From: Candidatus Zambryskiibacteriota bacterium
GTDB lineage: Bacteria > Patescibacteriota > Minisyncoccia > Phycocordibacterales > DATDWN01
NCBI GenBank assembly: GCA_003173855.1
Contig: PPGI01000008.1
Location: 10,119 to 74,118 of the forward strand
Length of the DNA stretch: 64,000 nt
Direction: 5' to 3'
Below the pieces are notes generated by a model. It was not told where the DNA came from and made no database searches. It saw nothing but the letters and a program-made list of their open reading frames with translations. Within the stretch, counting starts at the first letter, position 1, and each line of letters begins with the position of its first letter. Shown piece by piece: positions 1,508 to 57,837 of this stretch. The position numbers and the translations under genes are program-made.

Positions 1508-3649
1508 ATGAATCGCGACTACACATTAGAAAAAGTCAGAAATTTCGGAATTATTGCCCATATTGATGCTGGTAAAACGACGACTTCAGAACGTGTGCTT
1601 TTTTATACTGGAATGACTCACAAAATCGGAGAAGTGCACGAAGGTGAAACTGTTACTGATTGGATGGAGCAGGAGCGAGAGCGAGGCATCACCATTACGG
1701 CTGCTGCCATTACTTGTTTTTGGAATCCGACCTATATGGCAAAGGGGGCAAAGCCAGAATACCGATTTAATATTATTGATACTCCTGGACACATCGACTT
1801 TACTGCTGAAGTAAAGAGATCACTCCGAGTTCTTGACGGTGCTGTTGTAGTTTTTGATGGAGTTGCGGGAGTTGAACCACAATCAGAAACTAACTGGCGA
1901 TATGCCGATGACGGGAATGTGCCTCGAATTTGTTTTATTAACAAACTTGATCGTACAGGAGCTTCATTTGAAAGATCATATGCTTCGATTCTCGATCGTC
2001 TTACAAAAAATGCTGTCCGAGTTCAAATTCCGATTGGCCTAGAAGACAAACACGAAGGAGTGATTGATCTTTTGAAAATGAAAGCTTTTTATTTTGAGGG
2101 AAATATGGGAATGGCAATTCGCGAAGCAGAAATTCCACCAGAACTTGTTGATGATGCTAAAAAATTCCGAGGAGAATTGATTGAAAAAATTGTCGAACAA
2201 GATGACAGCTTAATGTCTGCATATCTTGAAGGCAAGGAACCAACTTTGGATGAATTAAAAACAACCCTTCGCAAGGCAACTCTTGCAGTAAAACTTGTAC
2301 CAGTTTTTGCAGGTAGTGCTTTAAAAAATAAAGGAGTTCAGCTTGTGCTCGATGGTGTTGTTGATTATCTACCTTCTCCACTTGATATTCCTCCAGTTCA
2401 CGGTATTGATCCGAAAACAGGTGAAGAAATTTTCCGTTCTGCCTCTGACACTGAGCCTTTCTCAGCTTTGGCATTCAAACTTCAGAATGATCCATTCGTC
2501 GGACAATTAACTTTCTTTAGAGTTTATTCTGGAACAATTGAAGCAGGTACTTATGTATATAACGCAACTACAAGTGAAAAAGAACGCCTTGGACGTATTG
2601 TTAGATTGCAAGCTGACAAGCGAGAAGAAGTGAAAAAAGTTTTTGCAGGAGAAATTGCTGCCGCTGTCGGATTAAAATCAGCAAAGACATCTCACACACT
2701 TTGTGATGAAAATAATCCAATTATTTTGGATCCGATTAAATTCGTTGATCCAGTTGTCTCTCTTAGAATTGAGCCAAAAACAAAAGCCGACCAGGAAAAA
2801 ATGGGTATGGCTTTGAAAAAACTTTCTGACGAAGATCCAACTTTTAAAATTTCTTCAAACTCTGACACAGGCGAGTCAATTATTTCTGGAATGGGTGAAT
2901 TACACTTGGAAATCATGGTTGATCGAATGAAGCGCGAATTCGGCGTTGAAGTAAATGTTGGCAAACCTCAAGTTGCATATCGTGAGACAATTCTTGGAAC
3001 TGCTGATGCAGAAAATAAGTACATCAAGCAAACTGGTGGAAAAGGCCAATATGGTCACGTAAAGATTACTCTTAAGCCAATGGAAAAACTGGAGGAAGGT
3101 GCAAAAATTCCTAAAAATGTTAAACGCTATGAAGATTTTGAATTCATTGATTCGATTAAAGGAGGTGTTATTCCACAAGAATTTATTCCAGCAGTTGAAA
3201 AGGGAGTTCATGAAGCAATGGATCGTGGAATTGTGGCTGGATACAAAATGGTCAATGTTTCTTGTGAACTGACTTTCGGTTCATATCATGATGTCGACTC
3301 ATCTGAAATCGCTTACAAAATTGCAGCTTCTCAGGCTTTCCAAGATGCAGCAAAGCGAGCAAAACCTGTTATTTTAGAGCCTATTATGAAAGTTGAAGCA
3401 GTTATGCCAGAGCAATTCATGGGAGATGTTACCGGTTCACTTTCAGGAAAGCGCGGACAAATCGAAGGAATGGATGAGAGGGGAATGCTTCGCGTAATTC
3501 ATGCAAAAGTTCCGCTTTCTGAAATGTTTGGATACACAACTGATATTCGATCAATGACACAAGGACGCGGTTCGGTGATGATGGAGTTTGATCATTACGA
3601 AGTGGTGCCATCTAACGTTGAGAAGCAAATTGTAGAGTCACGGAAATAA
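1508..3649 (+). CDS. fusA: Elongation factor G
   Basis: 713 aa; GTP-binding motifs AHIDAGKTT, DTPGH, NKLD; EF-G domain order. Confidence 0.97.
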   Translation: MNRDYTLEKVRNFGIIAHIDAGKTTTSERVLFYTGMTHKIGEVHEGETVTDWMEQERERGITITAAAITCFWNPTYMAKGAKPEYRFNIIDTPGHIDFTAEVKRSLRVLDGAVVVFDGVAGVEPQSETNWRYADDGNVPRICFINKLDRTGASFERSYASILDRLTKNAVRVQIPIGLEDKHEGVIDLLKMKAFYFEGNMGMAIREAEIPPELVDDAKKFRGELIEKIVEQDDSLMSAYLEGKEPTLDELKTTLRKATLAVKLVPVFAGSALKNKGVQLVLDGVVDYLPSPLDIPPVHGIDPKTGEEIFRSASDTEPFSALAFKLQNDPFVGQLTFFRVYSGTIEAGTYVYNATTSEKERLGRIVRLQADKREEVKKVFAGEIAAAVGLKSAKTSHTLCDENNPIILDPIKFVDPVVSLRIEPKTKADQEKMGMALKKLSDEDPTFKISSNSDTGESIISGMGELHLEIMVDRMKREFGVEVNVGKPQVAYRETILGTADAENKYIKQTGGKGQYGHVKITLKPMEKLEEGAKIPKNVKRYEDFEFIDSIKGGVIPQEFIPAVEKGVHEAMDRGIVAGYKMVNVSCELTFGSYHDVDSSEIAYKIAASQAFQDAAKRAKPVILEPIMKVEAVMPEQFMGDVTGSLSGKRGQIEGMDERGMLRVIHAKVPLSEMFGYTTDIRSMTQGRGSVMMEFDHYEVVPSNVEKQIVESRK

Positions 3650-3818
3650 TTTCTTACTCACTGCATTTCTCGAAGAGACCGTTTCGCTCCGCCAGCGCTA
3701 CGCTCACTAGTTCTCGGCTTTCCGACTTGTCAATGAGCCAGCAAGCTGGACGTTGACAAGACCGAGCTCTCGGCCTGCGAAGTCTCTCCTCGAAACGCAG
3801 TTCGACGAAATTATTTTC
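3642..3818 (+). repeat. GC-rich palindromic MITE-like repeat, copy A (terminal inverted repeats (TIRs) overlap the fusA stop codon)
   Basis: ~95% identical to the reverse complement of 51752..51920. The outer TIRs (gaaataatttc...gaaattattttc) bracket a GC-rich core (3667..3795) containing nested palindromes (ccgagagctcgg; cttgtcaa...ttgacaag). Confidence 0.65.
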
Positions 3819-3881
3819 TTGCTTTTTCATCTTTTAATTTGGGGAAAAGTTGGGCAAAACTTAGCTATTTGCATAAAATTT

Positions 3882-3899: not shown

Positions 3900-5132
3900 A
3901 TGAGTACTTCTGTTGCCGAACAAGGTGTCGGTAGAAAAGATAATTATTTAGATATTTTGCATAGGCAGGCTGATGGCCCAGAGTACAAAATTCCTATTAA
4001 GAAAATTGATTTTCGTACGTTACGCAAGCCGACAGATATTGATCCTTTACCTCAAGAAAAAGAAGCCATATCTCCAGAAGAGAAATCAGGAGTAATTTTT
4101 GAAAGTACAGTTTCAAGTCAAAGTTATAAAACACCAAACAAATTAATTGAATATATAAATATTTTAATAAAAGAGAATAGACCTCTCAAAGGTCTGCGGT
4201 GGGATATAGAAGAAGCAAAGTCGCTTGATGAAATAGTCAGTCGACTAACAAAAACAAATTTATTGTCGAAAGAAGAATGTGATGAAGCTATTTCATGCTG
4301 CCAATATCCCAATAAAGAAATTAAATTACATGTTGCATATACTGATCCACATCATGAAAGCACAGATCTGACTTTAGCAAGAAAAGAATACGTTGAAGCA
4401 CTCGTTCCATATTTAAAGAAACTTGAAGAGAAAAAAATTTCTTATCGAAAATTGATGCAAGGTCTCGGTGCTCAAAAAGACATGCCTTTGCCAGGTGAAC
4501 CCAAGGAGCTTGTTAATGCACGAAATGATTATTATAAGGCTAGGAATAAAGATAAAAAATCAAGTGGCCAAATTGAAAAAATCTACGATATCATGGAAGT
4601 TTCAAATCTTCGCCAAGAGATTCTCGCTCTCCAAAGTGAAAGGACGCAAATCTTTATTGATAGAGCAAATAAAAAATGGGAAAAAATTTCAAGAATTGAT
4701 AATGTAAATGTTCTCACAGCATTACTTAGCGATCTAACTTTTTTGTCATATGTTCCTCCAAAAGATGAAAATTATGTTGGTCTTCGTCCAGAAAAAATAA
4801 ATATTCAAGAAGTTATAGAAGAAAAACCTGTTGAAACCAAATCAGAAGTAGTAGAAGAAAAACAAGAGCCAAAGGCAGATCATGCTATTCAGATTTCAAA
4901 TCTGACATTTGATGACAAACCTCTTCAAGTTATTCTAAATACAGATGCCGAACCACAAACTATTCAAGTAATATTTAATGATAATGAAATTGCTTCTGGT
5001 ACGTTGACAAGGAAGGGGCCAAGTATTAAAGTTCATTCCCGTTATAAAGCAGGATTCCTATTGGCAAAGACCATGGAAGAAAAAGCTTTTGAAAACGCGA
5101 ATTCTCTTATAATCAAGAATTTCAAAATCTAA
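3900..5132 (+). CDS. Hypothetical 410-aa cytoplasmic protein inserted between fusA and tuf
   Basis: Long ORF with no transmembrane segment or known motif; coiled-coil-like segment (EILALQSERTQIFIDRANKKWEK). Confidence 0.55.
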   Translation: MSTSVAEQGVGRKDNYLDILHRQADGPEYKIPIKKIDFRTLRKPTDIDPLPQEKEAISPEEKSGVIFESTVSSQSYKTPNKLIEYINILIKENRPLKGLRWDIEEAKSLDEIVSRLTKTNLLSKEECDEAISCCQYPNKEIKLHVAYTDPHHESTDLTLARKEYVEALVPYLKKLEEKKISYRKLMQGLGAQKDMPLPGEPKELVNARNDYYKARNKDKKSSGQIEKIYDIMEVSNLRQEILALQSERTQIFIDRANKKWEKISRIDNVNVLTALLSDLTFLSYVPPKDENYVGLRPEKINIQEVIEEKPVETKSEVVEEKQEPKADHAIQISNLTFDDKPLQVILNTDAEPQTIQVIFNDNEIASGTLTRKGPSIKVHSRYKAGFLLAKTMEEKAFENANSLIIKNFKI

Positions 5133-5428
5133 TGAATATTTTATCAAAGGATATAGTTAAAGAATGGAATATATCCAGTTTGCCGGAAGCAAAACAACAA
5201 GAAATGATTGATCGCATTGGTCGCATAATGTACCAAGCGATTTTGGTGAAATCTTTGGATATTCTTTCTCAAGATGAACAAGATGAACTCGATCAATTAC
5301 TCAATGTTGATTCAACAACTCCACAAGAAGTTTTATTGTTTTTGAAATCAAAAATTCCGACATTTGAACAGTTGGTAATAGAGGAGAGAAAAAATCTAAA
5401 AGAAGATTTGGTTATCGAAAACATCTAA
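5132..5428 (+). CDS. Hypothetical 98-aa acidic protein
   Basis: ORF overlapping the upstream stop (TAATG). No recognisable family. Confidence 0.45.
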   Translation: MNILSKDIVKEWNISSLPEAKQQEMIDRIGRIMYQAILVKSLDILSQDEQDELDQLLNVDSTTPQEVLLFLKSKIPTFEQLVIEERKNLKEDLVIENI

Positions 5429-5597: not shown

Positions 5598-6794
5598 ATG
5601 GCTGAGTTCGATCGTTCAAAGCCACATGTGAATGTGGGAACAATTGGTCACGTTGACCACGGTAAGACAACATTAACAGCAGCAATTTTGACTGTACTTG
5701 GACGCGCAGGCCAAGGCTTCGGCGCAAAAGTAAAAGGAGTTGATCAAATTGACTCTGCTCCTGAAGAAAAAGCACGAGGAATTACTATCGCGCTTTCTCA
5801 CAATGAGTACGAGACACCTACAAGACACTACGCTCACGTAGATGCTCCTGGACACGCTGACTATATTAAAAACATGATCACTGGTGCCGCTCAGATGGAC
5901 GGTGCAGTATTGGTAGTTGCCGCAACAGACGGTGTTATGCCTCAAACACGAGAGCACGTACTTTTGGCAAAACAAGTTGGTGTGCCAAAGATTATCGTTT
6001 TCCTAAACAAATGCGATATGGTGCCTGACAAAGAACTCATTGATTTGGTTGAGGAGGAAGTTCGAGAGCTCCTTACAAAACAAGGTTTCGATGGTGCAGG
6101 TGCTCCAGTTATTCGAGGTTCAGGTCTTAAAGCTCTTGAGTCAAAAGACAATAATGACGAATGGGCAGCAAAAATTCTAGAACTTGCAAACGCATTGGAT
6201 ACTTATTTCCCAATTCCAGAGAGAGATCTTGAAAAGCCATTCCTTATGCCAGTTGAAGACATTTTCTCAATCGAAGGACGAGGAACTGTGGTAACTGGAA
6301 GAATTGAACGAGGAATCGTAAAAGTTGGTGAAGAAGTAGAGTGTATTGGTTTGAAAGATACAGCAAAATACACTGTTACTGGTATTGAAATGTTCAACAA
6401 ATCACTTCAAGAAGGCCAGGCTGGAGACAACGCTGGAATTCTTCTTCGAGGTGCTAAAAAAGAAGACATTCATCGAGGACAAGTTTTGGCAAAGCCAAAG
6501 ACTGTAACTCCTCACACAGAATTTATGGCAGAAGTTTACATTCTAAAGAAAGAAGAAGGTGGACGACACACAGCATTCGTTACAGGTTACAAACCACAAT
6601 TCTACATTCGAACTACAGACGTAACAGGAGAAGTTTCTCTAAACGAAGGTGTTGAAATGGTTATGCCAGGAGACACAGTTACTTTCAAAGTTAAACTTGT
6701 TGCTCCAGTTGCTCTAGAAGAGAAGACTCGATTTGCGATCCGCGAGGGTGGTAAGACAGTCGGCGCAGGAGTTGTAACAAAAATCCTCGCTTAG
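5598..6794 (+). CDS. tuf: Elongation factor Tu
   Basis: 398 aa; [18 protein letters not shown] motifs. Confidence 0.98.
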
Positions 6795-6920
6795 TAAACT
6801 TCCAAATTTAGCGATCTCCTTGTTTCGAGTTTGAAAATGTTCGTCACTTTACTACTTGTAAAGCTTCTCACATTTTCAAACTCTCAACTTCGGATCTCAT
6901 CTAAATTCTGAAAGTTTAGA
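6795..6920 (+). repeat. Conserved ~125-nt structured 3'-UTR element, copy M1 (begins TAAACTTCCAAATTT at the tuf stop codon)
   Basis: Alignable to the element after rplB (11088..11210). Central hairpin ctttac-tactt-gtaaag (6847..6863) shows compensatory changes relative to ccttac/gtaagg in the other copies. Confidence 0.55.
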
Positions 6921-6922
6921 AA

Positions 6923-6947
6923 AATACCGCACTCGCGGTATTTTTTC
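6923..6947 (+). terminator. Rho-independent terminator after tuf (taccgcactcgcggta + T6)
   Basis: Perfect hairpin followed by TTTTTT. Confidence 0.7.
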
Positions 6948-7022
6948 CCTTACAGGGACTGTACACCTTTCGCACATAACAGTGCTCAAGGTCTTGCGAA
7001 GCTTCGCTTCTCACGCCTAACA

Positions 7023-7051
7023 TTGCATTCAAAATTGAAATTTTTTATAAT
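7023..7051 (+). promoter_or_regulatory. Promoter TTGCAT-N17-TATAAT driving a GC-rich non-coding unit
   Basis: Consensus -35 and -10 with a 17-nt spacer. No ORF >=60 aa in 6795..7378. Confidence 0.5.
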
Positions 7052-7057
7052 ACTAAA

Positions 7058-7338
7058 TGGAGCAGTCGACACACAACCACGCTGAAGTAAGCGAAACGGC
7101 ACTATGAAACGAGATCTCGGCCTCCGGAAGTTTCAAGCCAGCAAAGCGTGTGTGGGAGAGCAGCGAATCTGCTCGTTACATACCTCACAGTAGGCACGCA
7201 CCCCATGTGTCGGGGACTCGTTGAGAGCCGCAGTAGTGACTTCTCCATCGTCCGCATCGGTAGAAAACCAAATCGGTTTCTCCGAGGCGGTTTTCTTTTA
7301 TACTTTACCCCGTACTGAGCTTTGCTCTAGTACTGGGG
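7058..7338 (+). ncRNA. Candidate structured non-coding RNA (~280 nt, GC ~55%) between tuf and rpsJ
   Basis: GC-rich island in an AT-rich genome, with no ORF. It has its own consensus promoter and ends in a hairpin (ccccgtact...agtactgggg, 7308..7338). Identity unknown; it did not match my recall of RNase P, SRP or 6S RNAs. Confidence 0.3.
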
Positions 7339-7367
7339 TTGAACAAAATTTAAATCTCTGTTAGTAT
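7339..7367 (+). promoter_or_regulatory. Promoter TTGAAC-N17-TAGTAT for rpsJ
   Basis: TTGAAC (7339-7344), 17-nt spacer, TAGTAT (7362-7367), 11 nt before the ATG. Confidence 0.55.
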
Positions 7368-7378
7368 CGAGCTTACAA

Positions 7379-7807
7379 ATGCCAACAGCAAAAAAGGAAC
7401 CAAAAGCAAAAAAAGCAGCAGCTCCTAAAAAAACTGCAGCAAAAACTCCTGCAAAAGCTGCTGCTCCAAAGGTTACAAAAGCTAAAGCAGCTCAAGATGT
7501 TATTTCAAAGCTACGAATCCGAGTTCGAGCTTACGAATACAAAATCTTAGATCTTTCAGTAAAACAAATTATCGATACAGCACTTCGATATGATGCAAAA
7601 GTTGAAGGCCCTATTCCACTTCCAACAGAACACAAAAAATATACTGTAAACCGATCATCATTCGTTTACAAAAATGCTAGGGAACAATTTGAAATGAGAA
7701 TTCACAAGCGATTGATTGATATTTTAAATCCTACACCAAAAATCATGGAGGCTCTTACAAATATGTCTTTGCCTAGCGGAGTTAACATCGACGTAAAAAT
7801 AATTTAA
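7379..7807 (+). CDS. rpsJ: 30S ribosomal protein S10 with an ~45-aa Lys/Ala-rich N-terminal extension
   Basis: C-terminal ~100 aa match S10 (RIRVRAYEYKILD...HKRLIDIL). The N-terminus (AKKEPKAKKAAAPKKTAAKTPAKAAAPK) is histone-H1-like. Confidence 0.9.
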   Translation: MPTAKKEPKAKKAAAPKKTAAKTPAKAAAPKVTKAKAAQDVISKLRIRVRAYEYKILDLSVKQIIDTALRYDAKVEGPIPLPTEHKKYTVNRSSFVYKNAREQFEMRIHKRLIDILNPTPKIMEALTNMSLPSGVNIDVKII

Positions 7808-10250: not shown

Positions 10251-11090
10251 ATGAAAAGATACCGACCAACATCAAAATCACGCCGACAGATGACAACCAT
10301 TTCATTTGGTGATTTCATTACCACAAATGACCCAGTCAAGTCATTGACTCATGGCTATAAACGACAAATGGGCCGAAGTCATGGTGAAATAACTACTCGA
10401 CACAAAGGAGGCGGTCACAAGAGACTTTTCCGCGAAGTTGATTTTCTATACGACAAAATAAATATTCCTTACACAATCAAAACTGTTGAATACGACCCAA
10501 ACCGATCAGGTTTTATCGGACTTGCTCAATATGCTGATGGTGAAAAAAGATATGTTCTTGTTCCTCGAGGAATTAAAGTAGGGGAAACATTTTTAACTAG
10601 TGAAACTGCTGAACCAAAAACTGGAAATCGATTGCCTCTAAAAAACATAAATATTGGTACTTTTGTTTACAACGTAGAAATAAAACCAAATGGCGGAGCT
10701 AAACTTGCTCGATCTGCCGGAAACTATATTGAAGTTATTGCTAAAGATGGAGGAATGATTGATCTAAAAATGCCTTCAACTGAAGTTCGCAAAGTTCCAG
10801 AAACAGCTTGGGCATCTATCGGTGATGTTTCAAACAACGAAAACAGATTGGTAAATCTTGGTAAAGCTGGACGTTCACGATGGCTTGGAATCAGGCCTAC
10901 AGTTCGCGGTACAGCAATGAACCCTGTTGATCACAAATACGGTGGAGGAGAAGGCCGTCAGGGAAGAGGAACAAGACGTGCGATTTCTATTTATGGTAAG
11001 CCAACAGGTAAGGGTCAGAAGTCTAGAACTCCTAAGAAGTATTCGAATAAGTTTATTGTTTCTCGCCGACGCGTTGGCAAGCAACGCTAA
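10251..11090 (+). CDS. rplB: 50S ribosomal protein L2
   Basis: 279 aa; conserved L2 C-terminal region (GGGEGRQGRG...). Confidence 0.96.
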   Translation: MKRYRPTSKSRRQMTTISFGDFITTNDPVKSLTHGYKRQMGRSHGEITTRHKGGGHKRLFREVDFLYDKINIPYTIKTVEYDPNRSGFIGLAQYADGEKRYVLVPRGIKVGETFLTSETAEPKTGNRLPLKNINIGTFVYNVEIKPNGGAKLARSAGNYIEVIAKDGGMIDLKMPSTEVRKVPETAWASIGDVSNNENRLVNLGKAGRSRWLGIRPTVRGTAMNPVDHKYGGGEGRQGRGTRRAISIYGKPTGKGQKSRTPKKYSNKFIVSRRRVGKQR

Positions 11091-11210
11091 ACTTCCAAAT
11101 TTGGCGAACTCCTCGTTACCAAATTAAAAATACTCGTCACCTTACATTTGTAAGGCTCCTCGCATTTTTATTTCTCACGTCGGATTTCATCCAAATCTGA
11201 TAATTTTAGG
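11088..11210 (+). repeat. Conserved structured 3'-UTR element, copy M2 (TAAACTTCCAAATTT overlaps the rplB stop)
   Basis: Alignable to 6795..6920; contains hairpin ccttac-attt-gtaagg at 11140..11155. Confidence 0.55.
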
Positions 11211-11258
11211 GCGACCAAATCGGTCGCCTTTGACATTTAAAATTTTTTGTGATTAAAT
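11209..11258 (+). promoter_or_regulatory. Terminator/promoter module: hairpin GGGCGACC..GGTCGCC, then TTGACA-N17-TTAAAT
   Basis: Hairpin 11209..11228; TTGACA 11230..11235; -10 at 11253..11258; GAGGAG SD before the ATG at 11278. Confidence 0.55.
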
Positions 11259-11277: not shown

Positions 11278-11568
11278 ATGAATTCAACTTGTTACTTTTG
11301 CAAAAAACCTGGTCAATTTCGGAAAATGACCCTTTCTTCTCAATTAGGGAGCTGGGCCCCTGAACTGGGTCCCATTGATCACGTAGATGTTCACTCTCAT
11401 TGTTATTTTTGGCGGGCTAAACTTCCTGAAATAGGAATGGTAGTACCTGGTCTTCTGGTTTATGTCGGATTTTTTTTGAAATCAGAAACCATGGTAATAT
11501 ATACCATGTCCTTGGCTTTGCTTTTTGCGGGATGGGGTCTATACAACAGATTTCGTTTCAATTTCTAG
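11278..11568 (+). CDS. Hypothetical 96-aa protein (C-terminal hydrophobic segment) inserted between rplB and rpsS
   Basis: ORF with strong SD, own promoter and downstream terminator. No family recognised. Confidence 0.35.
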   Translation: MNSTCYFCKKPGQFRKMTLSSQLGSWAPELGPIDHVDVHSHCYFWRAKLPEIGMVVPGLLVYVGFFLKSETMVIYTMSLALLFAGWGLYNRFRFNF

Positions 11569-11574
11569 TGTGTA

Positions 11575-11624
11575 GGGCGGCAAAGTAGCCGCCCTTTGAC
11601 ATTTAAAAAATGAAGAATAGAGTT
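11575..11624 (+). promoter_or_regulatory. Terminator/promoter module: hairpin GGGCGGC..GCCGCCC, then TTGACA-N16-TAGAGT
   Basis: Hairpin 11575..11594; TTGACA 11596..11601; AAAGGAG SD before the ATG at 11660. Confidence 0.5.
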
Positions 11625-11659
11625 AATAATAGAGCCATTTTGACAGAAAGGAGTTTCTT

Positions 11660-12004
11660 ATGTGGGAAAGGCAAGCGTTTTTGGAAAAATTACTCAAGGC
11701 CTCGGAACAAGTAATAAAAATATCATCGAGGAGAGAGAAATTCACTTGGGCCGATATTTCTGCTAAGGCTGAAAGGAGTGTTGGCCTGCCTGTAGTTTGT
11801 CCGAATTCTCCACAAAAGTATCATCCAGTGGAGGAAGCTATCGAAACTCTTGCTCGTCATGGTCGTATAAAGCAAAAAATCAAAAGAGATCTATTCTGGG
11901 GTCCACTTATGACTTTGGAGGATCTTCAAAAGATCGAAGAAGCATGGCAACATGTTACAAGACCTTCAAAGATTCTTGAGGTTAAACTTCAGATTGCGTC
12001 CTGA
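11660..12004 (+). CDS. Hypothetical 114-aa protein inserted between rplB and rpsS
   Basis: ORF with strong SD; ends with tandem stops TGA-TAA. No family recognised. Confidence 0.4.
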   Translation: MWERQAFLEKLLKASEQVIKISSRREKFTWADISAKAERSVGLPVVCPNSPQKYHPVEEAIETLARHGRIKQKIKRDLFWGPLMTLEDLQKIEEAWQHVTRPSKILEVKLQIAS

Positions 12005-12012
12005 TAACTAAG

Positions 12013-12062
12013 GGCGGCGAATTGCGCCGCCCTTTGACATTTATAGGCAATTTGTATAGTAT
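12013..12062 (+). promoter_or_regulatory. Terminator/promoter module: hairpin GGGCGGCG..CGCCGCCC, then TTGACA-N17-TAGTAT
   Basis: Hairpin 12013..12033; TTGACA 12034..12039; TAGTAT 12057..12062. Confidence 0.55.
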
Positions 12063-12167: not shown

Positions 12168-12518
12168 ATGACACGTTCAAGCTATAAGGGCCCATATGTC
12201 GATCCTCGTCTATTGAAGAAGATCGAAGGAAAAAAGCATCTGGAAACAGGGGTTATTAAAACTTGGTCACGTGCATGTGTCATTTCTCCGGAAATGGTAG
12301 GCTTCACCTTCGGCGTCCACAATGGCAAGACCCATTTGGACGTTTTAGTTTCTGAAGACATGGTGGGCCATCGACTTGGCGAGTTTGCTCCGACAAAGAA
12401 ATTCATCAAACACGGAGGAAAGATGCAGAAAGAACTGGAACAAAAGAAGAAAGAGGGTGAAATTGCTGCTGCTCAAGCTGCAAAAACTGTAACAGAAGGA
12501 ACTGCAGCTAAAAAATAA
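12168..12518 (+). CDS. rpsS: 30S ribosomal protein S19 with a Lys/Glu/Ala-rich C-terminal extension
   Basis: The first ~90 aa match S19 (GPYVD...NGKTH). ~25-aa tail. Confidence 0.93.
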
Positions 12519-18893: not shown

Positions 18894-20168
18894 ATGAAAG
18901 AATTTTTTAATAAAATTGCTCTCGTTTTCCAAGATAGAATTCTTCGAAAACGAATTCTTTTTACGCTTTTTGCTCTCGTTCTTTTTCGCGCGCTAGCTTC
19001 GATTCCAGTTCCAGGAGTTGATCACGGACGTTTGGCACAGTTTTTCTCTTCAAACGAATTTTTTGGCTTACTTAACCTCTTTTCTGGCGGTGGTCTTGCC
19101 CAACTTTCGATTGTGATGCTTGGCGTTGGTCCATTTATTACAGGCTCAATTATCATGCAGCTCTCGACAATGATGTCGAAAAAACTAAAGGAAATGTACC
19201 AAGAAGAAGGTGAAGCAGGTCGCCGAAAATTTGCACAATACGGTCGAATTCTTACTATTCCGCTTGCTATGCTACAGTCATTTACATTTATAAAAATTTT
19301 GCAAACTCAGCAAGTTATTCCACAGATTTCAACGTTAGCATTTGTTACAAATATTTTGGTTATCACTGCCGGTTCAGTTCTTCTAATGTGGATCGGTGAA
19401 CTTATTTCGGAATATGGAATTGGCAACGGAGTTAGTTTAATTATTTTTGCTGGAATCGTGGCAGCTCTGCCAACAGAGATTGGCCAACTGGCATTTTCAT
19501 TTGATGCATCACAAATTCCAGTATTTCTAGCAGCTTTGGTAATTGCAGCAATTGTTATTGTGACGGTTGTTGTTATTACAGAAGCCGAGCGGCCGATTCC
19601 AATTACTTATGCAAAGCAAGTGAGAGGCAATAAGATTTACGGAGGAACATCAACTTATCTTCCATTGCGAATTAATCAAGCAGGAGTTATTCCAATCATT
19701 TTTGCTCTTTCAATTCTTTCTTTCCCACAAATGATTTTAAAATTCTTGCAAAATATTTCTTCACACCCAGCACTTCAATCTGTTTCAACAACATTACTTA
19801 ATTTTCTAGCAAATGTTTGGTTTTATGATATTGCTTATTTCTTTTTAGTTTTTGTTTTTACATATTTCTATACAGCAGTGACATTTGATCCAGATCAGAT
19901 TTCTACAAACCTTCAAAAAAATGGTGCTTTCATTCCGGGAGTTCGGCCAGGCAAATCAACCTCAGAACACATTTCGCGAATTCTAACTCGACTGACTCTT
20001 GTCGGCGCACTTTTCCTTGGTTTTATAGCAGTTTTGCCTCTGATTATGCGTAATGTCACTGGAATTACGGCTGTTTCCATTGGCGGTACGGCACTACTTA
20101 TCGTTGTTTCCGTAGTTATCGACCTAATCAAAAAGATAGACGCCCAAATTTCAATCAGGGAATACTAA
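18894..20168 (+). CDS. secY: Preprotein translocase SecY
   Basis: 424 aa with 10 transmembrane segments; SecY-like. Confidence 0.95.
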   Translation: MKEFFNKIALVFQDRILRKRILFTLFALVLFRALASIPVPGVDHGRLAQFFSSNEFFGLLNLFSGGGLAQLSIVMLGVGPFITGSIIMQLSTMMSKKLKEMYQEEGEAGRRKFAQYGRILTIPLAMLQSFTFIKILQTQQVIPQISTLAFVTNILVITAGSVLLMWIGELISEYGIGNGVSLIIFAGIVAALPTEIGQLAFSFDASQIPVFLAALVIAAIVIVTVVVITEAERPIPITYAKQVRGNKIYGGTSTYLPLRINQAGVIPIIFALSILSFPQMILKFLQNISSHPALQSVSTTLLNFLANVWFYDIAYFFLVFVFTYFYTAVTFDPDQISTNLQKNGAFIPGVRPGKSTSEHISRILTRLTLVGALFLGFIAVLPLIMRNVTGITAVSIGGTALLIVVSVVIDLIKKIDAQISIREY

Positions 20169-20300
20169 TTACAGCTCAGGTCTTTTTGTCTGATTTCTTT
20201 GTCACTCGCTCCGGTACTCCCTCACCTTACATTTGTAAGGCTCGGTTCGTTCCTCACTCGTTTCGCGAACTCAAACAAAAATCCTCTGAGTTTCATACTT
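20169..20300 (+). repeat. Structured intergenic element, copy M3 (diverged), after secY
   Basis: Hairpin ccttac-attt-gtaagg at 20225..20240 flanked by tCAC...CTC, as in M1, M2 and M4. Confidence 0.4.
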
Positions 20301-22596: not shown

Positions 22597-23010
22597 ATGT
22601 ACAATTGGGCAATGTTAAGAAAGCCGCTTTTTAGATCAGCTTTTGGTCTTTTACTTGTTATTTGGGCAATATTTATTATTGGCTATGAATTTTCATTAAA
22701 TTACTTTTTTTGGTGGTACGATTGCATTTTACATTTTCTTTCTGGTGGTTGTGTAGCAATGGGAACTATTTGGCTATGGGATTATTTTTTTCCGACAAAC
22801 AATAAACACAAATTAATTCTCGTTGGATTTATCGGCACTTTAATAGTTGGCCTTATTTGGGAAATTTTTGAAATTCATTACGGTTTAACATTTTTATCTG
22901 ACGGCATTATATATATTAGAGATACCGCTTCAGATTTATTGTTAGACGTTTGCGGAGGATATTTTGCAACGCTTTATTCGTTTAAAATTTTATTTAAAAA
23001 TGTTAAGTAA
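22597..23010 (+). CDS. Small 4-transmembrane protein, VanZ-like (tentative); start uncertain (22576, 22597 or 22612)
   Basis: Hydrophobic; D-x3-HF and D-x3-G motifs reminiscent of the VanZ family. Confidence 0.4.
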   Translation: MYNWAMLRKPLFRSAFGLLLVIWAIFIIGYEFSLNYFFWWYDCILHFLSGGCVAMGTIWLWDYFFPTNNKHKLILVGFIGTLIVGLIWEIFEIHYGLTFLSDGIIYIRDTASDLLLDVCGGYFATLYSFKILFKNVK

Positions 23011-24379
23011 AGAATTACAGCTAACTTTTTTTTCTGGCGTTGGGACAGTCACAGGTGCAAATTTTTTGCTTGAGACAATTTCGACTGGAATTTTAGTGGA
23101 TTGTGGTTTAACTCAGGGAACAGAAGAAGCAACAAAATTAAATCACGAACCATTTGGTTACGATCCGAAAATTGTGGATTTTCTTTTTATTACTCATGCT
23201 CATATGGATCATATTGGCCGAGTGCCGAAACTCGTTCATGACGGATTTTCTGGAACAATTTATTCAACTCCCGAAACAAAACAAATTTCAGAACTAATGT
23301 TTGCCGATGCTCTGAAAATCATGAATTCAAAGGAAAAAGAATTTAGTGATGGTACGCGAGAAAAACCTCTGTACGATGAAAATGATGTAAATCAAACGAT
23401 GTCACTTTGGAAAACCATTCCGTATCACGAATCTACAAAACTAAATGATGAGTTTGTAGTAAATTTATTGGATGCGGGTCATATTTTAGGCTCATCAATG
23501 ATCGAGTTTACATTCAATGGCAAAAAGATAACTTTTACAGGGGATAGTGGCAATTCGCCATCACCTTTACTTCGCGACACAGAAGCTATTACAAATACTG
23601 ATTACCTCATAATGGACAGTGTTTATGGAGACAGAAATCACGAGCCAAAAAAAGAAAGAGATGCAAAATTTAGGGAAATAGTAAGACAGTCAATTCAAGC
23701 CGGGGGCGCTCTAGTTATCCCTGCATTTTCGGTTGAGAGAACTCAAGTCATTCTTTATGAATTAAATAATTTGGTTGAACATGGCCAGATTCCAAAAGTG
23801 CCAATATTTCTCGACTCTCCTTTAGGTTCAAAAGTGACAGAAATTTATCGCGAAACTTATCGTGATTTTAATAGCGAAGCTCAAGGGCAAATCAAATCTG
23901 GTGATGATTTGTTTGATTTCCCAAAACTCTCCATCACTCATTCATCTCGCGAATCAAAAGACATCGAAAATACTCCAAATCCAAAAATAATCATCGCAGG
24001 ATCAGGCATGTCATCTGGCGGGCGAGTAGTCGGGCATGAAATAGCATTCCTGCCGGATCCTCGCAGTACAATTTTAATCGCCGGATACCAAGCACCAGGA
24101 ACGCTGGGTAAGCAAATCGAAGAAAAACCAAAAGAAATTGAAATAAATGGTGAAATTATTCCAGTTCGAGCAAAAATCGAGACAATTTCAGGCTATTCTT
24201 CTCACAAAGATTCAGATAACTTAGTCAAAATGGCGTCTGATACAGCTAAAACTGTTAAGAAAGTTTTTGTCGTAATGGGAGAACCCAAATCATCACAGTA
24301 TCTAGCTCAACGACTTCGTGACGAATTAAATGTTGATGCAATTGTTCCCGAACGCGCTAAGCCATACAAACTTTCATAG
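23000..24379 (+). CDS. Metallo-beta-lactamase-fold beta-CASP ribonuclease (RNase J/CPSF-like)
   Basis: HxHxDH motif (THAHMDH); ~460 aa; beta-CASP-like C-terminal half. Confidence 0.75.
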   Translation: MLSKELQLTFFSGVGTVTGANFLLETISTGILVDCGLTQGTEEATKLNHEPFGYDPKIVDFLFITHAHMDHIGRVPKLVHDGFSGTIYSTPETKQISELMFADALKIMNSKEKEFSDGTREKPLYDENDVNQTMSLWKTIPYHESTKLNDEFVVNLLDAGHILGSSMIEFTFNGKKITFTGDSGNSPSPLLRDTEAITNTDYLIMDSVYGDRNHEPKKERDAKFREIVRQSIQAGGALVIPAFSVERTQVILYELNNLVEHGQIPKVPIFLDSPLGSKVTEIYRETYRDFNSEAQGQIKSGDDLFDFPKLSITHSSRESKDIENTPNPKIIIAGSGMSSGGRVVGHEIAFLPDPRSTILIAGYQAPGTLGKQIEEKPKEIEINGEIIPVRAKIETISGYSSHKDSDNLVKMASDTAKTVKKVFVVMGEPKSSQYLAQRLRDELNVDAIVPERAKPYKLS

Positions 24380-24435
24380 TTGGCACATCCCACTATTTAC
24401 CTTTCCGCCTAGAACATCCAACTATGAAAGTTTGT
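24366..24435 (+). terminator. Perfect 18-bp inverted repeat (acaaactttcatagttgg / ccaactatgaaagtttgt) with a 34-nt loop, spanning the RNase stop codon
   Basis: Seen directly in the sequence; followed by a T-rich tract. Confidence 0.5.
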
Positions 24436-31758: not shown

Positions 31759-31807
31759 GCAGTGTTCACGCAAAAGGCCGGCAACCCGCCGGCCTTTCCT
31801 ATACATG

Positions 31808-31881
31808 TCCGCCTGCTTGGACTCGAACCAAGGACCCCAGAGGTATAAGCTCTGTGCTCTAACCAACTGAGCTACAGGCGG
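31808..31881 (-). tRNA. tRNA with anticodon UAU (predicted Ile, AUA-reading)
   Basis: Canonical cloverleaf: acceptor CCGCCUG/CAGGCGG; D-arm GCUC-AGUUGGUUA-GAGC; anticodon stem CAGAG/CUCUG with loop CUUAUAC; T-arm CUUGG-UUCGAGU-CCAAG; discriminator A; CCA not encoded. Confidence 0.75.
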
Positions 31882-36756: not shown

Positions 36757-38143
36757 TTAATATTGAGAACTCCACTGTGCGGTTAGATTTCCAATACCAT
36801 TGTCGGCTACAACTTTAATTGAGATTATATCTCCTGCACTAAATGCAACATTGTGTGTTACATCTGAACAAGAACTTGCTCCGCTAGTGATTGTACACGT
36901 TACAGGCTGACTTACGCCATTTTTATCAACAGTGAACACGATATTTTTACCAGAGCCGCCGACATTAGAACTCAATCTCACAAAGAAGTTCTTTATTGTT
37001 CCTGCAACTGGCATTGCTACTTGCTCTGAGCTTTCAGTTGTTGAATTACTTCCAACAAATGTGCCCATGTATGTTGTAGCATTAGCTTGAACGCTTGCAC
37101 CACTGCCTCCACCTATAAATGAGATTCCGTTAGTTCCATTTATACCTGGGTTACCTTGTATTCCTTGGATACCCTGTATACCTTGAGAACCAGTGTCACC
37201 CTTATCTCCCTTTACACCCTGAATACCTTGGATGCCCTGTATTCCTTGATCTCCTTTATCACCCTTTGGACCAATAAGTGATGTTAACCATTGAGTTACA
37301 GTGCCACCAAAACTATTATCAACAGCAACTTGGTAAGCACTTTTTCCATCAACACCAGTGTCTCCTTTGTCTCCTTTATCACCCTTATCACCTTGAATTC
37401 CTTGTATTCCTTGATCTCCTTTGTCTCCTTTTAAGCCTTGTGGACCTTGAGAACCAGTATCACCTTTATCTCCCTTTGGACCTTGTGGACCAGTATCGCC
37501 GGTATCTCCCTTCAAACCTTGTGGGCCTGGTACACCTTGAATACCTTGTTCTCCTTTTTCACCTTGTTGACCAGTTTCTCCTTGGATTCCTTGCTCACCT
37601 TGAGCACCAGTCTCTCCTTTTTCACCCTGAACTCCTTGAATACCCTGATCTCCTTTGTCACCTTTATCTCCCTTTGGACCTTGGATTCCTTGTTGACCTT
37701 GTGGACCAGCAGGACCTATTGGACCTACATCACCTTGAGCACCTATAGGACCAGCAGCTCCCGTATCTCCTTTAGGACCTTGATCTCCGGTATCACCCTT
37801 GTCTCCTTTTTCTCCATTAGTTCCGTTTGTTCCAGGATCCCCCTTTGGACCTTGTGGACCAACTGAACCTTGTATACCTTGTGGACCTTGAGCACCAGTC
37901 TCTCCTTTAGGACCCGCAGGGCCTGTGTCACCAGTATCACCCTTTGGACCGGTTGCTCCATCAGCACCATTTTGACCAGCAGGACCGATTGGACCTTGGA
38001 TTCCTTGAATTCCTTGTGGGCCAGCAGGACCTTGAATATTTCCTACATCTTGGAAGTGAGTTAAATCAGTACATACATATAAATGTCCACCAATTAAATA
38101 TCCATCACCAATATTACATGATGAAGGTAGAAGGGAGTATCAT
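36757..38143 (-). pseudogene. Collagen-like (GxY)n protein, C-terminal segment: ~110 GxY triplets, a phage tail-fibre/BclA-like SAYQVAVDNSFGGTVTQWLTSL motif, and a C-terminal globular domain. The frame is open from 38143 with no ATG; it continues the 38094..38627 ORF after a frameshift
   Basis: In-frame GxY repeats traced by eye from 38041 to ~37100. The ORF-track entry 36757..37515 merely starts at an internal TTG. Confidence 0.6.
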
Positions 38144-38627
38144 CAAATGATCCGAGAATTTTTACACTTGTTCCAGCTTCTCCTTTTTCTCCTTGTGGAC
38201 CTTGTGGACCAGCAGGGCCTTGAGCACCTGTTGCACCAGGAGCACCATCAGCACCAGCCGGACCGGTTGAGCCTGTATCTCCTTTATCTCCTTTTGAACC
38301 TTGTATTCCTTGAGCACCTATTGAACCAGCAGGACCTGTGGCACCAGTATTACCAGTGTCACCCTTGTCTCCTTTTTCTCCTTGTGGACCGATAGGACCG
38401 ATTGGACCTTGTGGGCCGATAGGACCAGGAACTCCTTGAATTCCTTGTGGACCTTGTGGACCTGCAGGACCTTGTGGACCAACTGTTGAACCGACACTAA
38501 TAAAAGTATTTCCTGAACCAGTACACTGTGAGGCAGAACTTACAACCGTCACTTTTCCGTTCGGACTTGAAACACAAAGATTAATTGTTGTAGCAGATGC
38601 ATTTGCAAGTGGAATTAATGCAAACAA
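38094..38627 (-). CDS. Collagen-like protein, N-terminal segment (signal peptide + N-domain + ~40 GxY triplets), ending prematurely after a frame change
   Basis: [12 protein letters not shown] signal-like; [16 protein letters not shown]... repeats. The ORF ends in the non-collagen tail ...[24 protein letters not shown], while the GxY frame resumes downstream in another frame. Confidence 0.6.
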
Positions 38628-51703: not shown

Positions 51704-51751
51704 ACTATTATTGGGCGTACTTTACTATACGGTTTTTAAAATAACAAGCTT

Positions 51752-51920
51752 AAATTTCTCTGGTTAGTATGTTTTGAAAAGAGACTTCGCAGGCCGAGAG
51801 CTCGGTCTTGTCAACGTCCAGCTTCGCTGGTTCATTGACAAGTCGGAGAGCCGAGAACTAGTGAGCGTAGCGCTGGCGGAGCGAAACGGTCTCTTGAAAA
51901 ATATACTAACCAGAGAAATT
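51752..51920 (-). repeat. GC-rich palindromic MITE-like repeat, copy B (the right TIR overlaps the stop codon of the SDR gene)
   Basis: Reverse complement ~95% identical to 3642..3818. ~19-bp TIRs (aaatttctctggttagtat / atactaaccagagaaatt). GC-rich core 51781..51895. Confidence 0.65.
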
Positions 51921-52653
51921 ATAAATTCTGTCCTTGGTCAATTGGATAAACGTAGCCGGAAGCCATTGTGATTTCTGACAAATACAAAGCAAGTTTTGCA
52001 AATTGTTCAACCGCTTCTTCATCGCTAATTCGGTATTTAAGAGGGGATTCATCGCGGATTGCCTGCCATTCAATCTTCGAAATATCTTCTGGACGAAGAA
52101 TTGGACCGGGAGCGATGGCGTTTACGAAAATTCCTTTACCTGCGAGTTCTGTGGCCAGAGCTTTGGTCATATTTGCGATCGCAGCTTTGGTTACAACGTA
52201 AGGAAGATAGCCAGAATAAATTTTACCAAGAGATGTTCTGTCAGCCACATTTATAATATGTCCGCCATTTGGCATTATTTTTGATCCAATTTGTGATGGC
52301 CAGAATGTTCCAAAAATATGTGCATCTAAATTTCTCTGCCAATCTTTCTCGCTAATGTTTTCAAATTTAACAGGAGTAAAAACTGAAGCAAGATTAATTA
52401 AAATATCAATTTTTCCAAATTTCTTTTTTATTTCACTAACAGTCTTTTCAACACTCTCGCGATTTGAGACATCGCATTGTATTGCAAGACCCTGAACTTT
52501 ATATTTTTTTGCATTTTTTACAATTTTTTCTGATTCGTGAGCAGAACTTCTATAACTTGTGACAATATTTACTCCATTTTGTGCAAGAACTTCAGCAATT
52601 CTCTGGCCAATTCGCTTTCCACCAGTAATCCAAGCAGTTTTTCCTTTGAGCAT
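51919..52653 (-). CDS. Short-chain dehydrogenase/reductase (SDR) family oxidoreductase
   Basis: TGGKRIG Rossmann motif; catalytic YxxxK (YVVTK). Confidence 0.8.
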   Translation of the reverse strand: MLKGKTAWITGGKRIGQRIAEVLAQNGVNIVTSYRSSAHESEKIVKNAKKYKVQGLAIQCDVSNRESVEKTVSEIKKKFGKIDILINLASVFTPVKFENISEKDWQRNLDAHIFGTFWPSQIGSKIMPNGGHIINVADRTSLGKIYSGYLPYVVTKAAIANMTKALATELAGKGIFVNAIAPGPILRPEDISKIEWQAIRDESPLKYRISDEEAVEQFAKLALYLSEITMASGYVYPIDQGQNL

Positions 52654-56568: not shown

Positions 56569-57693
56569 ATGCCACCTTTTCTTTCCAATCTGTTCAAAAA
56601 AAGAGCCAAAAGCGTAATTGGAGTAGATATTGGCTCTTCCTCTATAAAAATTGTTCAACTGACTAAAAAAAGCGGTCATCCCGTACTCGAAACATACGGG
56701 GAACTTTCGCTTGGCCCTTATGCTGGTAAAGAAGTCGGGGAAGCGACTAATTTGCCAATTGAAAAAATTATTGCGGCGGTAACCGATATGCTTCGGGAGA
56801 AAGAAGTCAATATTACAACTAGAGTTGCAGGTCTTTCGATCCCATTTGCATCAAGCTTAATGGCTGTAATTGAATTGCCGGCATTGTCAGCTAAAGAAAT
56901 TTCCGATATGGTGCCGATCGAATCAAGAAAATATATTCCCGTTCCAATTTCAGAAGTGACACTGGATTGGTATCCGATTCCAAAAGATAAGTCTCCTGAT
57001 TCAGAAGCTGTGCCGATTCCTGACCCAAACTTTCCTCCGCCTGCGCCAAAACAGGAAGTGCTGATAGTTGCTTTGCACAATGATACGATCAATCAGTACA
57101 AAGATATTGTTACAAAAAGCGGACTGGAAGCTAGCTTTTTTGAAATCGAAATTTTCAGCACTATGCGATCAATTCTTGATCAAGATGTAACGCCAGTGCT
57201 TTTGATCGACATGGGAGCAACATCAACCAAGCTTTACATAGTTGAGCGGGCCATCCTGCGTAGTTCGCATATGATCAATCGCGGTTCGCAGAAAATTACA
57301 GACGAACTTTCTAAATCACTCGGCATTTCCATAACTGATGCAGAATATTTGAAACGAGAAAAAGGATTGATGGGTGAAATAAACGGAATTCCTGTACGAA
57401 ATGTAATGACAATCACATTAAATTATATTTTCTCGGAAGCCAACCAAGTTTTGCTTGCATATCAGAAAAAATACAACAAAAACGTTTCGAAAGTGCTTTT
57501 GGTTGGCGGCGGTAGTGCGCTAAAGGGAATAGTTGACGTTGCAAAGTCTATTTTTAATGTAGAAGTTCTTGCGGGAGACCCATTTGGTAAGGTTGTTGCA
57601 CCGGCTTTTTTAGAAAAAGTTCTGCGCGATACTGGACCTGAATTTGCTGTAGCAGTAGGCGTCGCCTTAAGAGTATTACAGGAGAAGGGATAG
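56569..57693 (+). CDS. pilM: Type IV pilus assembly protein PilM (actin-like ATPase fold)
   Basis: SVIGVDIGSSSIKIVQL N-terminus; FtsA/PilM-like. Confidence 0.8.
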   Translation: MPPFLSNLFKKRAKSVIGVDIGSSSIKIVQLTKKSGHPVLETYGELSLGPYAGKEVGEATNLPIEKIIAAVTDMLREKEVNITTRVAGLSIPFASSLMAVIELPALSAKEISDMVPIESRKYIPVPISEVTLDWYPIPKDKSPDSEAVPIPDPNFPPPAPKQEVLIVALHNDTINQYKDIVTKSGLEASFFEIEIFSTMRSILDQDVTPVLLIDMGATSTKLYIVERAILRSSHMINRGSQKITDELSKSLGISITDAEYLKREKGLMGEINGIPVRNVMTITLNYIFSEANQVLLAYQKKYNKNVSKVLLVGGGSALKGIVDVAKSIFNVEVLAGDPFGKVVAPAFLEKVLRDTGPEFAVAVGVALRVLQEKG

Positions 57694-57799
57694 AACTTCG
57701 AAAACTTGCGCATTTCGTTGTTGCAGTTCAATTTTGCTGTTCACCTTACTACAAGTAAGGCTCACTCACAAAATTTCCTGCGCCTAGAACTGCATCCAG
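57694..57799 (+). repeat. Structured intergenic element, copy M4: central hairpin ccttac-tacaa-gtaagg inside nested long-range helices
   Basis: Outer perfect 12-bp inverted repeat acttcgaaaact / agttttcgaagt (57695-57706 with 57787-57798). Inner tgcagttc/gaactgca and gcgca/tgcgc pairings. Central hairpin 57744..57760 matches the M1-M3 family. Confidence 0.55.
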
Positions 57800-57837
57800 T
57801 TTTCGAAGTTCGAGATTGTTATGTTTGACGGAATTTT

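Follow-up and report, generated by a model that had tools for sequence, protein, structure and literature searches.

The 64,000-nucleotide stretch of DNA analysed here, referred to as the window, carries four non-coding elements, termed M1 to M4, placed directly behind the stop codons of genes that Pfam identifies as encoding EF-Tu (tuf), L2 (rplB), SecY and PilM. All four are found on the forward strand, 4-37 kb apart, where the preliminary description had placed them, although the limits given there for the secY and pilM copies, 20169-20300 and 57694-57799, had to be corrected to those of Table 1. The shared core, TCAC-YTTAC-loop-GTAAR-GCT, occurs four times in the window, against an expectation of 0.00 in shuffled sequences. 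Each element is an imperfect palindrome over its entire length of ~120-125 nt, forming one long imperfect hairpin, hereafter the rod, with z-scores of -8.5, -3.6, -3.3 and -4.3 (M1-M4) when folded with flanks. The covariance model R1 described below, run with filters off, recovers exactly four full copies in the window (106, 95, 93 and 62 bits), while scores on the reverse strand do not exceed 24 bits.

The four elements are anchored at the preceding stop codon in slightly different ways. M1 starts with its own TAA, one codon past the tuf stop (TAG, 6792-6794); the first three bases of M2 are the rplB stop codon TAA; M3 lies 4 nt past the secY stop (20166-20168) and 32 nt ahead of adk; and the first base of the outer helix, P1, of M4 is the G of the pilM stop codon TAG (57691-57693). 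M1 and M2 align from the stop codon, as first proposed, with 81% identity across the first 58 nt (beginning TAAACTTCCAAATTT). The stem exchange reported earlier, cTttac/gtaaAg in M1 versus cCttac/gtaaGg, is real, and M4 indeed has the identical stem with another loop. Relative to the copy at the same junction in L120 (L-numbers designate genome loci fetched around pattern matches, see below), which belongs to the same subfamily and is 88% identical, M1 displays two compensatory pair changes, and its C>T and G>A constitute a true compensatory pair. The M3 subfamily was also found behind fusA in L029, L030 and L056. The perfect outer helix once considered special to the pilM copy exists and spans 13 bp, but it is the general P1 helix of the family.

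The segments shared by M1 and M2 were previously described as running into a terminator, whereas the hairpins that follow both copies are stems separate from the element. The hairpin behind M1 is absent from the output of a simple terminator scan, and that behind M2 belongs to a unit of which two other copies begin at 11573 and 12012. The M2 region is not followed directly by rpsS (S19, 12168-12518), since two orphan ORFs lie in between. The complete unit, a GC-rich hairpin (GGGCGNC...GNCGCCC) followed directly by TTGACATTTA, is found at 11207-11242, 11573-11608 and 12012-12054, bounding the two ORFs of 96 aa (11278-11568) and 114 aa (11660-12004), neither of which has a Pfam match; possibly the unit combines a terminator with a promoter and was duplicated along with each of these small genes.

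Besides the full copies, the window contains an internally deleted fifth copy, which overlaps the 3' end of an RNase J-like (beta-CASP metallo-beta-lactamase) gene (22964-24379) and retains a perfect 18-bp P1-like stem (ACAAACTTTCATAGTTGG / CCAACTATGAAAGTTTGT) and the 3' motif TCCGCCTAGAAC without the apical module, together with an orphan 3'-arm fragment and a 66-nt mini-element behind M1 (Table 1).

Table 1. Coordinates and properties of rod copies, remnants and adjacent features in the window
Feature	Coordinates	Strand	R1 score (bits)	Sense fold (kcal/mol)	Antisense fold (kcal/mol)	Apical module	Remarks
M1	6795..6918	+	94.8	-36.9 (rod fold, z -7.4)	-52.6	6844-6866, TCACTTTAC-TACTT-GTAAAGCTT	Full copy
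M2	11088..11208	+	92.6	-21.2	-44.1	11137-11158	Full copy
M3	20173..20292	+	61.6	-27.4	-44.3	20222-20243	Full copy; belongs to another subfamily, with outer stem CAGCTCNGG
M4	57693..57811	+	106.1	-39.8 (rod fold, z -6.3)	-50.1	57741-57763	Full copy
Fifth copy	about 24366-24435	+	23				Internally deleted, centre missing
Orphan 3'-arm fragment	7015..7046	+					Remnant of another copy, read by eye, not CM-scored: GCCTAACATTGCATTCAAAATTGAAATTTT vs consensus GCCTAGAACTGCATCCAAATTTGAAAGTTTT
Mini-element	6949..7014	+					66 nt, CTTACAGGG...CGCTTCTCAC; sits at the TCC|GCC point of the rod-family 3' arm
Terminator-like hairpin and T run after M1	6920..6946	+					AAAAATACCGC-ACTC-GCGGTATTTTT; sequence reading; separate from the element
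GC-rich hairpin, then TTGACA, after M2	11209..11232	+					Terminator-like stem, separate from the element

Several other features of the window were recorded. A second repeat family is represented at 3646-3840 (+) and 51745-51925 (-), with 90% identity over 153 nt, and displays a GC-rich branched core (GAGACCGTTTCGCTCCGCCAGCGC...GCCTGCGAAGTCTC) within a variable outer stem that begins at the upstream stop codon (fusA and a short-chain dehydrogenase, respectively); the folds reach -68.7 and -72 kcal/mol (z -4.0 and -7.8), Rfam contains no match, and the sole partial match, of 42-51 nt, is in L050. A GC-rich non-coding stretch of 333 nt extends from the tuf 3' region to rpsJ (7046-7378; -104 kcal/mol, z -2.6), has no Rfam match, shares short pieces with L124 and L092, and may be an S10-operon leader or a new RNA. 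Dense repeats of 9-nt periodicity, CCTTGNGGACC-like on the + strand, occupy 37140-38470 and probably encode collagen-like Gly-X-Y in the - strand ORFs 36757-37515 and 38094-38627.

Distribution of the rod family

The strict core pattern TCACCTTAC-N4/5-GTAAGGCTC, searched in one-genome-per-species contigs, matched at least 111 genome loci, and among the matches listed all but three are from Patescibacteria, often several per genome; the three others (L044, L046 and L076) have no rod and no R1 score. From these loci 107 copies were aligned, and a 50-pair consensus voted from single-sequence folds gave the covariance model R1. Scanning the fetched loci with R1 revealed 130 + 9 = 139 copies of 110-140 nt in about 50 Patescibacteria genomes, all non-coding; a single genome contributed as many as 12 of them. 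The covariance-model scan proposed in the preliminary description thus yielded more than 130 copies, with compensatory changes among them. Twenty-seven copies lack the strict core and, since they were not picked by the pattern, provide an unbiased view of the family. Viral contigs contain no R1 copies, and 23 matches to a looser pattern in them are at chance level.

The family amounts to tens of copies per genome and is restricted to one clade of Patescibacteria. Its members are labelled Zambryskibacteria, Kaiserbacteria or Paceibacterota, and because the deposited labels are mutually inconsistent we refer only to a clade of Patescibacteria; the FusA protein of the window itself shares 89.6-91.3% identity with proteins deposited under the names Zambryskibacteria, Paceibacterota and "Saccharibacteria". 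An exact-protein look-up identified one identical 1.5-kb contig for the rplB region, in run SRR490130, and no identical contig for tuf.

The rod family is apparently undescribed. Rfam 15, applied to the whole window at gathering score, returned the tmRNA and two tRNAs only, and in E-value mode gave nothing below E = 0.89 at 6780-7400, in line with the earlier remark that no structured-RNA family matches; no published description was found in the literature on repeats and structured RNAs of Patescibacteria, CPR or Parcubacteria. The window encodes a tRNA-Ile with anticodon TAT (UAU) at 31807-31881 (-), a species uncommon in bacteria, where AUA is usually read by a lysidine-modified CAU tRNA.

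Architecture and covariation of the rod

The rod comprises four helices, P1 to P4, separated by conserved internal loops and crowned by an apical hairpin. The AT-rich consensus is about 125 nt long, with ends that are typically TAAAAC...GTTTTA. P1 has 14-20 bp and is variable, commonly TAAAACTTCCAAATTTGG / CCAAATTTGGAAGTTTTA. A 1x2 loop separates it from P2, which consists of 3+3 bp flanking a pyrimidine-pyrimidine mismatch (C.U or U.C). The internal loop past P2 is near-invariant: its 5' strand reads GUU, its 3' strand GCC, and it contains a U.G opposition. P3 varies, and a 3x3 loop (UCA/CUC) leads to P4, CCUUAC-loop-GUAAGG. P1 is the least conserved part, while the centre and apex are the most conserved. 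Inspection of the conserved loops revealed no match to an IHF site, a K-turn or a loop E.

Covariation is strong in all four helices. In the covariance-model alignment of 130 copies, 80.2% of cells are paired versus 56.9% in shuffles, and 1372 cells are changed on both sides versus 434 in shuffles; controls in which the 3' partner was slid by 1-3 columns gave at most 395 such changes, and a MAFFT alignment gives a similar excess. In the 27 unbiased copies P4 itself covaries, with variants such as CCGTAC/GTACGG, ATGTAC/GTACAT, CTGTAC/GTACAG and CCTTAT/ATAAGG, and the UCA/CUC loop is retained. The P4 variants lose the UCACCUU motif, and mimicry of an anti-Shine-Dalgarno sequence was dropped as an interpretation for this reason.

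The elements were first presented as a functional RNA structure rather than a DNA repeat; the conserved fold and compensatory changes stand, but the copies also form dispersed, mobile-like repeats. One reading, which generalises that first view and is possible though on the doubtful side, is that of a dedicated cis-acting 3'-UTR structured RNA, in which the repeat character would be secondary and the host would keep a functional sense rod that stabilises or processes the upstream mRNA, or couples termination to mRNA fate or to a downstream ribosome-binding site. Covariation in every helix favours such an RNA, as does the alternation, at several pairs, of a conserved U.G opposition with U-A and of G-C with G.U (columns 35-150, 34-151, 20-177 and 40-145).

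Position behind stop codons

In 90/130 copies a same-strand ORF (60 codons or longer) has its end between -12 and +10 nt from the 5' edge, bearing out the description of the elements as 3' regions straight behind stop codons; in the modal case the stop codon provides the first bases of P1. Only five of the 130 copies have an antisense ORF stop at the 3' edge as their sole abutting stop. An opposite-strand ORF ends at the 3' edge of 17 copies, 12 of which are convergent pairs that also have a sense ORF, and in convergent gene pairs it is the same-strand gene that is abutted in 22/25. TGA stops are depleted (4/89 versus 16% background), TAA or TAG occupies the 5' edge in 78/90 abutting copies and 21/40 others, and a search for an insertion target 5' of the stop codon revealed no motif. 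Among the remaining copies, 20 have an opposite-strand start codon 1-21 nt from the 5' edge, with GGAAG ~10 nt upstream.

The genes upstream are diverse yet translation-rich, including EF-G, EF-Tu, S7, S15, S18, EF-P, L2 and SecY. This gene set, the 10:1 sense orientation and the adjacency to stop codons even in convergent pairs would suit a cis-acting RNA, and in P1 the region of the stop codon is paired with a 3' strand in which GGAAG occurs, with a downstream ATG within 25 nt in 17 copies. The stop-flush placement, including that in convergent pairs, is also counted in favour of the mobile origin discussed below. Three rod copies elsewhere follow genes for dsRNA-binding (dsrm) domain proteins, possibly RNase III.

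Canonical terminators, where present, lie downstream of the element, as behind the copies in L120, L124, L086, L034, L056, L116 and L030, so the rod is transcribed as 3' UTR or intercistronic RNA. The A run and T run that flank P1 (TAAAAC...GTTTTA) might suggest that the rod is itself an unusual intrinsic terminator, a long hairpin with GUUUU at the foot of P1. However, the T run pairs with the A run, A and T prevail at the stem foot, many copies are followed by a canonical GC-rich terminator of their own, and copies also sit within operons, where they separate essential genes that are transcribed together, for example secY and adk. The rods thus lack the defining feature of intrinsic terminators, and we regard this identity as rejected and exceedingly improbable. 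It is very unlikely, too, that each copy is a discrete regulatory-RNA gene whose product is a trans-acting sRNA cut from the 3' UTR: the 3'-UTR position and the stable hairpin are all that favours this, whereas the copies are divergent, number tens per genome and have variable stems, no conserved single-stranded seed is present except short pyrimidine loops, and many copies separate co-transcribed genes.

Turnover at operon junctions

Comparison of equivalent junctions shows that copies turn over at the same operon junctions. Behind secY, the window has a CAGCTC-type copy, L092 and L132 have an AACTTCC-type copy, to which L092 adds the retained 3' end of a CAGCTC-type copy, L107 has an internally deleted remnant, and L100, L085 and L052 have ordinary terminators and no element. 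The tuf junction accommodates four different subfamilies and is empty in L031, while the fusA junction carries copies in five genomes and a different long hairpin in the window. Filled, empty, remnant and replaced states thus coexist behind secY, tuf and fusA. Of two genomes labelled Kaiserbacteria, one (L047) has the element upstream of rpsS in sense orientation and the other (L054) in antisense. No clean filled/empty pair was found among the secY-junction and rplN-region loci compared. A metagenome scan with R1 found no copy in 80 rplN-region loci (597 kb) of more distant relatives, whose Tuf and SecY are at most 81% and 68% identical, respectively. Mixed subfamilies, orientations and remnants at the same junctions, and this patchiness among relatives, point to mobility, and they argue against a dedicated cis-acting RNA, as relatives with the same operons do entirely without the element.

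Copies that share a junction have 82-89% identity, against 35-62% at the 4-fold degenerate sites of the tuf, fusA and secY genes next to them, where neutral change is saturated; the terminators nearby show no conservation. This could reflect host-level purifying selection on a functional RNA, an interpretation that would serve the cis-acting reading and counts against a mobile one. However, spread later than host divergence explains the conservation equally well, because non-orthologous copies are as similar: those of L116 (after fusA) and L124 (after tuf), from different genomes, share 91% identity. Within genomes no pair exceeds 89% identity, so there is no sign of recent activity, which weighs against mobility. 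So do the lack of any transposase or integrase among about 45 window ORFs and the flanks, where direct repeats are at chance level (0 nt in 75 copies, 1 nt in 45 and at least 2 nt in 9); no target-site duplication is detectable, although a palindromic TA duplication would hide within P1.

Rods are also the site of other insertions. The mini-element of Table 1 has a general form of ~66-72 nt, CTTACAGGNNC.GTACACCTTT...CAAGGTCTTGCGAAGCTTCGCTTCTCAC, and carries a small hairpin close to either terminus. Its insertions leave no target duplication and lie mostly within rod arms, as in L097 (834-904; GAACTC|CTCGTT); BLAST located it in L072 (3287-3360) and L128 (2442-2491), beside or near rod copies, and by eye it was recognised inside the rod copies of L052 and L122. 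Judged from sequence, it looks like a separate small mobile element of the IS200/IS605-type miniature class that targets rods, and its nesting inside rod copies adds to the picture of mobility. An insert of ~42 nt, CCACAAGRGYACTTCTTGTTTTATAAAYAAAACAAWGTCGCT, interrupts rod copies in L026 (~6610-6655) and L067 (~5010-5055). As a separate observation, lineage-specific accessory ORFs occur within the otherwise universal junctions fusA|tuf, secY|adk and rplB|rpsS (window 3900-5428; L056 3163-6879; L132 2648-5373; L047 1860-5190); Pfam matches are lacking for many of them, a Laminin_G_3 domain is present in one, and the 3.7-kb insert of L056 is bracketed by two rod copies in inverted orientation.

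Strand asymmetry

The two strands of the rod differ in folding potential. The antisense RNA folds better by ~13 kcal/mol on average (128/130 copies; Table 1 for M1-M4), and when DNA parameters are used the advantage of the bottom strand extends to 130/130. Predicted folds of the M2 and M3 sense RNAs do not reach the full rod, whereas that of the M2 antisense RNA does. The mRNA strand is pyrimidine-rich (C 23.6%, G 14.9%), mismatches are pyrimidine-pyrimidine in 743 cases versus purine-purine in 181, and A.C oppositions (351) exceed G.U pairs (209). The asymmetry is intrinsic and independent of context.

A worse-folding sense strand with more A.C than G.U is usually the opposite of what sense-strand RNA under structural selection displays. 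With the mRNA strand the worse folder, the asymmetry argues against a simple sense-RNA structure under selection, and hence against the cis-acting reading. Nevertheless, the strand test is not decisive, since several of the A.C oppositions counted are fixed subfamily features and some individual pairs show the RNA-like series G-C / G.U / A-U. The asymmetry fits either a bottom-strand single-stranded substrate or tolerance of a weaker, Shine-Dalgarno-like-free hairpin near the stop codon.

Comparison with known repeats and structured elements

Among known systems close to the rods are the ERIC/IRU elements of Enterobacteriaceae and Vibrionaceae, reportedly described by Hulton in 1991. Like the rods, these are imperfect palindromes, of ~127 bp, with a conserved centre and no known transposase; tens to hundreds of them are scattered over a genome, in intergenic or 3' regions that are transcribed. 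The likeness extends to size and architecture only, in a different host phylum. ERIC occurs in both orientations and is not reported flush on stop codons, whereas rods are flush; in addition, rod stems covary widely between subfamilies, and conserved internal loops are their defining feature. ERIC at gene 3' ends changes mRNA levels (PMC10969869).

REP/BIME elements, which stabilise the upstream mRNA, share with rods an extragenic palindrome in 3' and intercistronic positions that is co-transcribed. According to Liang, Rudd and Deutscher (2015), many REPs are reportedly found no more than 15 nt from a stop codon, where they influence translation. REP/BIME are mobilised as single-stranded hairpins by RAYT transposases. 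In contrast to REPs, which are 20-40 nt, GC-rich and begin with a GTAG or CGTC head (PMC3733652), rods are ~125 nt, AT-rich, built of four helices and without such a head, and no RAYT was identified among the scanned window ORFs.

Correia (CREE/NEMIS) and other TIR-type MITEs are, like rods, ~100-200 bp long and devoid of an ORF; on transcription they give long RNA hairpins, and they occur nested and in clusters (PMC10969869). RNase III cleaves Correia elements within the inverted repeats, and 3' protection or processing is known for REP, ERIC and Correia elements (PMC10969869, PMC12320835). Rod ends are often TA...TA, reminiscent of the Correia TA duplication. However, MITEs have conserved terminal inverted repeats and visible target duplications, while rods have variable ends, a conserved apex and no near-identical copies; of the TIR-type MITE traits, rods are short, non-coding, dispersed in many copies and variably present or absent at homologous sites, but without conserved terminal inverted repeats.

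A plausible working analogy for an effect on mRNA is provided by the RNase III signals of phage T7, intercistronic hairpins with conserved internal loops in which a single cut leaves a protective 3' hairpin. These signals are not mobile-type repeats and have no sequence similarity to rods, whose cleavage is hypothetical.

The attC sites of integrons are imperfect palindromes of 57-141 bp with fixed unpaired bases, in fixed orientation right behind ORF stops; what they conserve is structure, not sequence, and their active strand is the bottom one, which folds better. IS200/IS605-derived mini-elements (PATE) have no terminal inverted repeats, no duplication, subterminal hairpins and a fixed short 5' target; in rods no duplication is detectable and TAA/TAG is frequent at the 5' edge, yet one long inverted repeat is atypical of that class. 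An unlikely reading is that rods are single-stranded DNA recombination or transposition sites active as the bottom-strand hairpin, by attC, REP/RAYT or IS200/IS605-end logic, marking ORF ends where accessory genes enter conserved operons. The strand asymmetry is as such a site would have it, and structure and fixed mismatches are conserved while sequence varies. The lack of a detectable target duplication, the fixed orientation right behind ORFs and the presence in the same genomes of an IS200/IS605-like mini-element that inserts into rods agree with this, as do accessory ORFs at rod junctions (window 3900-5428 and 11278-12004, 3.7 kb in L056 and 2.7 kb in L132).

Against such a site, attC conserves its base (the R and L boxes) and varies its tip, the opposite of the rod; rod ends are TAAAAC...GTTTTA rather than RYYYAAC...GTTRRRY; no Phage_integrase match, tyrosine recombinase or HUH enzyme was seen in the scanned window ORFs; and in the window rods follow core housekeeping genes, many genes apart, and bound no cassette arrays. 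Accessory insertions also occur at rod-free junctions (L052 and L136). The more specific proposal that rods are structure-specific single-strand recombination sites of attC-like logic and inverted anatomy, working through the bottom-strand hairpin and serving as landing pads for the capture or exchange of accessory genes, seems quite improbable to us; if true, it would mean that gene cassettes are handled here in the absence of a canonical integron. By their defining features, rods cannot be assigned to REP, TIR-type MITEs, attC, terminators or any Rfam family.

Origin and possible function

To the reading that we favour we give about an even chance: rods would be ERIC/REP/MITE-like, non-autonomous and largely quiescent palindromes, once mobile and now co-transcribed, with the fold under selection acting through either element propagation or host mRNA function. 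The number of core-pattern and covariance-model loci, covariation beyond both shuffled and slid controls, the stop-flush position ahead of separate terminators and the turnover described above speak for this origin. Beyond the lack of an enzyme, a target duplication or close within-genome pairs, it has against it that conservation is lowest in P1, which would have to be the terminal inverted repeat, and highest in the centre, whereas classical MITEs show the opposite pattern.

On this model of once-mobile palindromes, the hairpin would be needed for the propagation of the element itself; a factor acting in trans would recognise it, probably in single-stranded form, through the conserved apical module. 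Copies would survive only where their transcript is tolerated, flush behind stop codons, and the tolerated orientation would place the weaker-folding, pyrimidine-rich strand in the mRNA; the better antisense fold in nearly all copies, whatever their context, is consistent with such tolerance. Within the mRNA, the rod would form a moderately stable 3' or intercistronic hairpin, which probably acts in cis by blocking 3' exonucleases or by offering a site for RNase III-type processing, in the manner of REP, ERIC and Correia elements. We judge such a putative cis effect on the upstream mRNA, which would consist in 3' protection or processing, to be likely.

Patescibacteria have genomes of ~1 Mb with very little non-coding DNA. 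Despite this compactness, the clade maintains structured repeats of 125 nt, tens of them, within the operons that are conserved most. R1 is a ready covariance model for annotating these genomes, in which rods mark operon junctions where accessory genes accumulate. They also pose a puzzle, in that the element is sense-orientated behind stop codons although its opposite strand is the better folder. A fold that serves DNA mobility would imply some hairpin-recognising enzyme; if it serves the mRNA, the rods would represent a new cis-regulatory module in an uncultured phylum.
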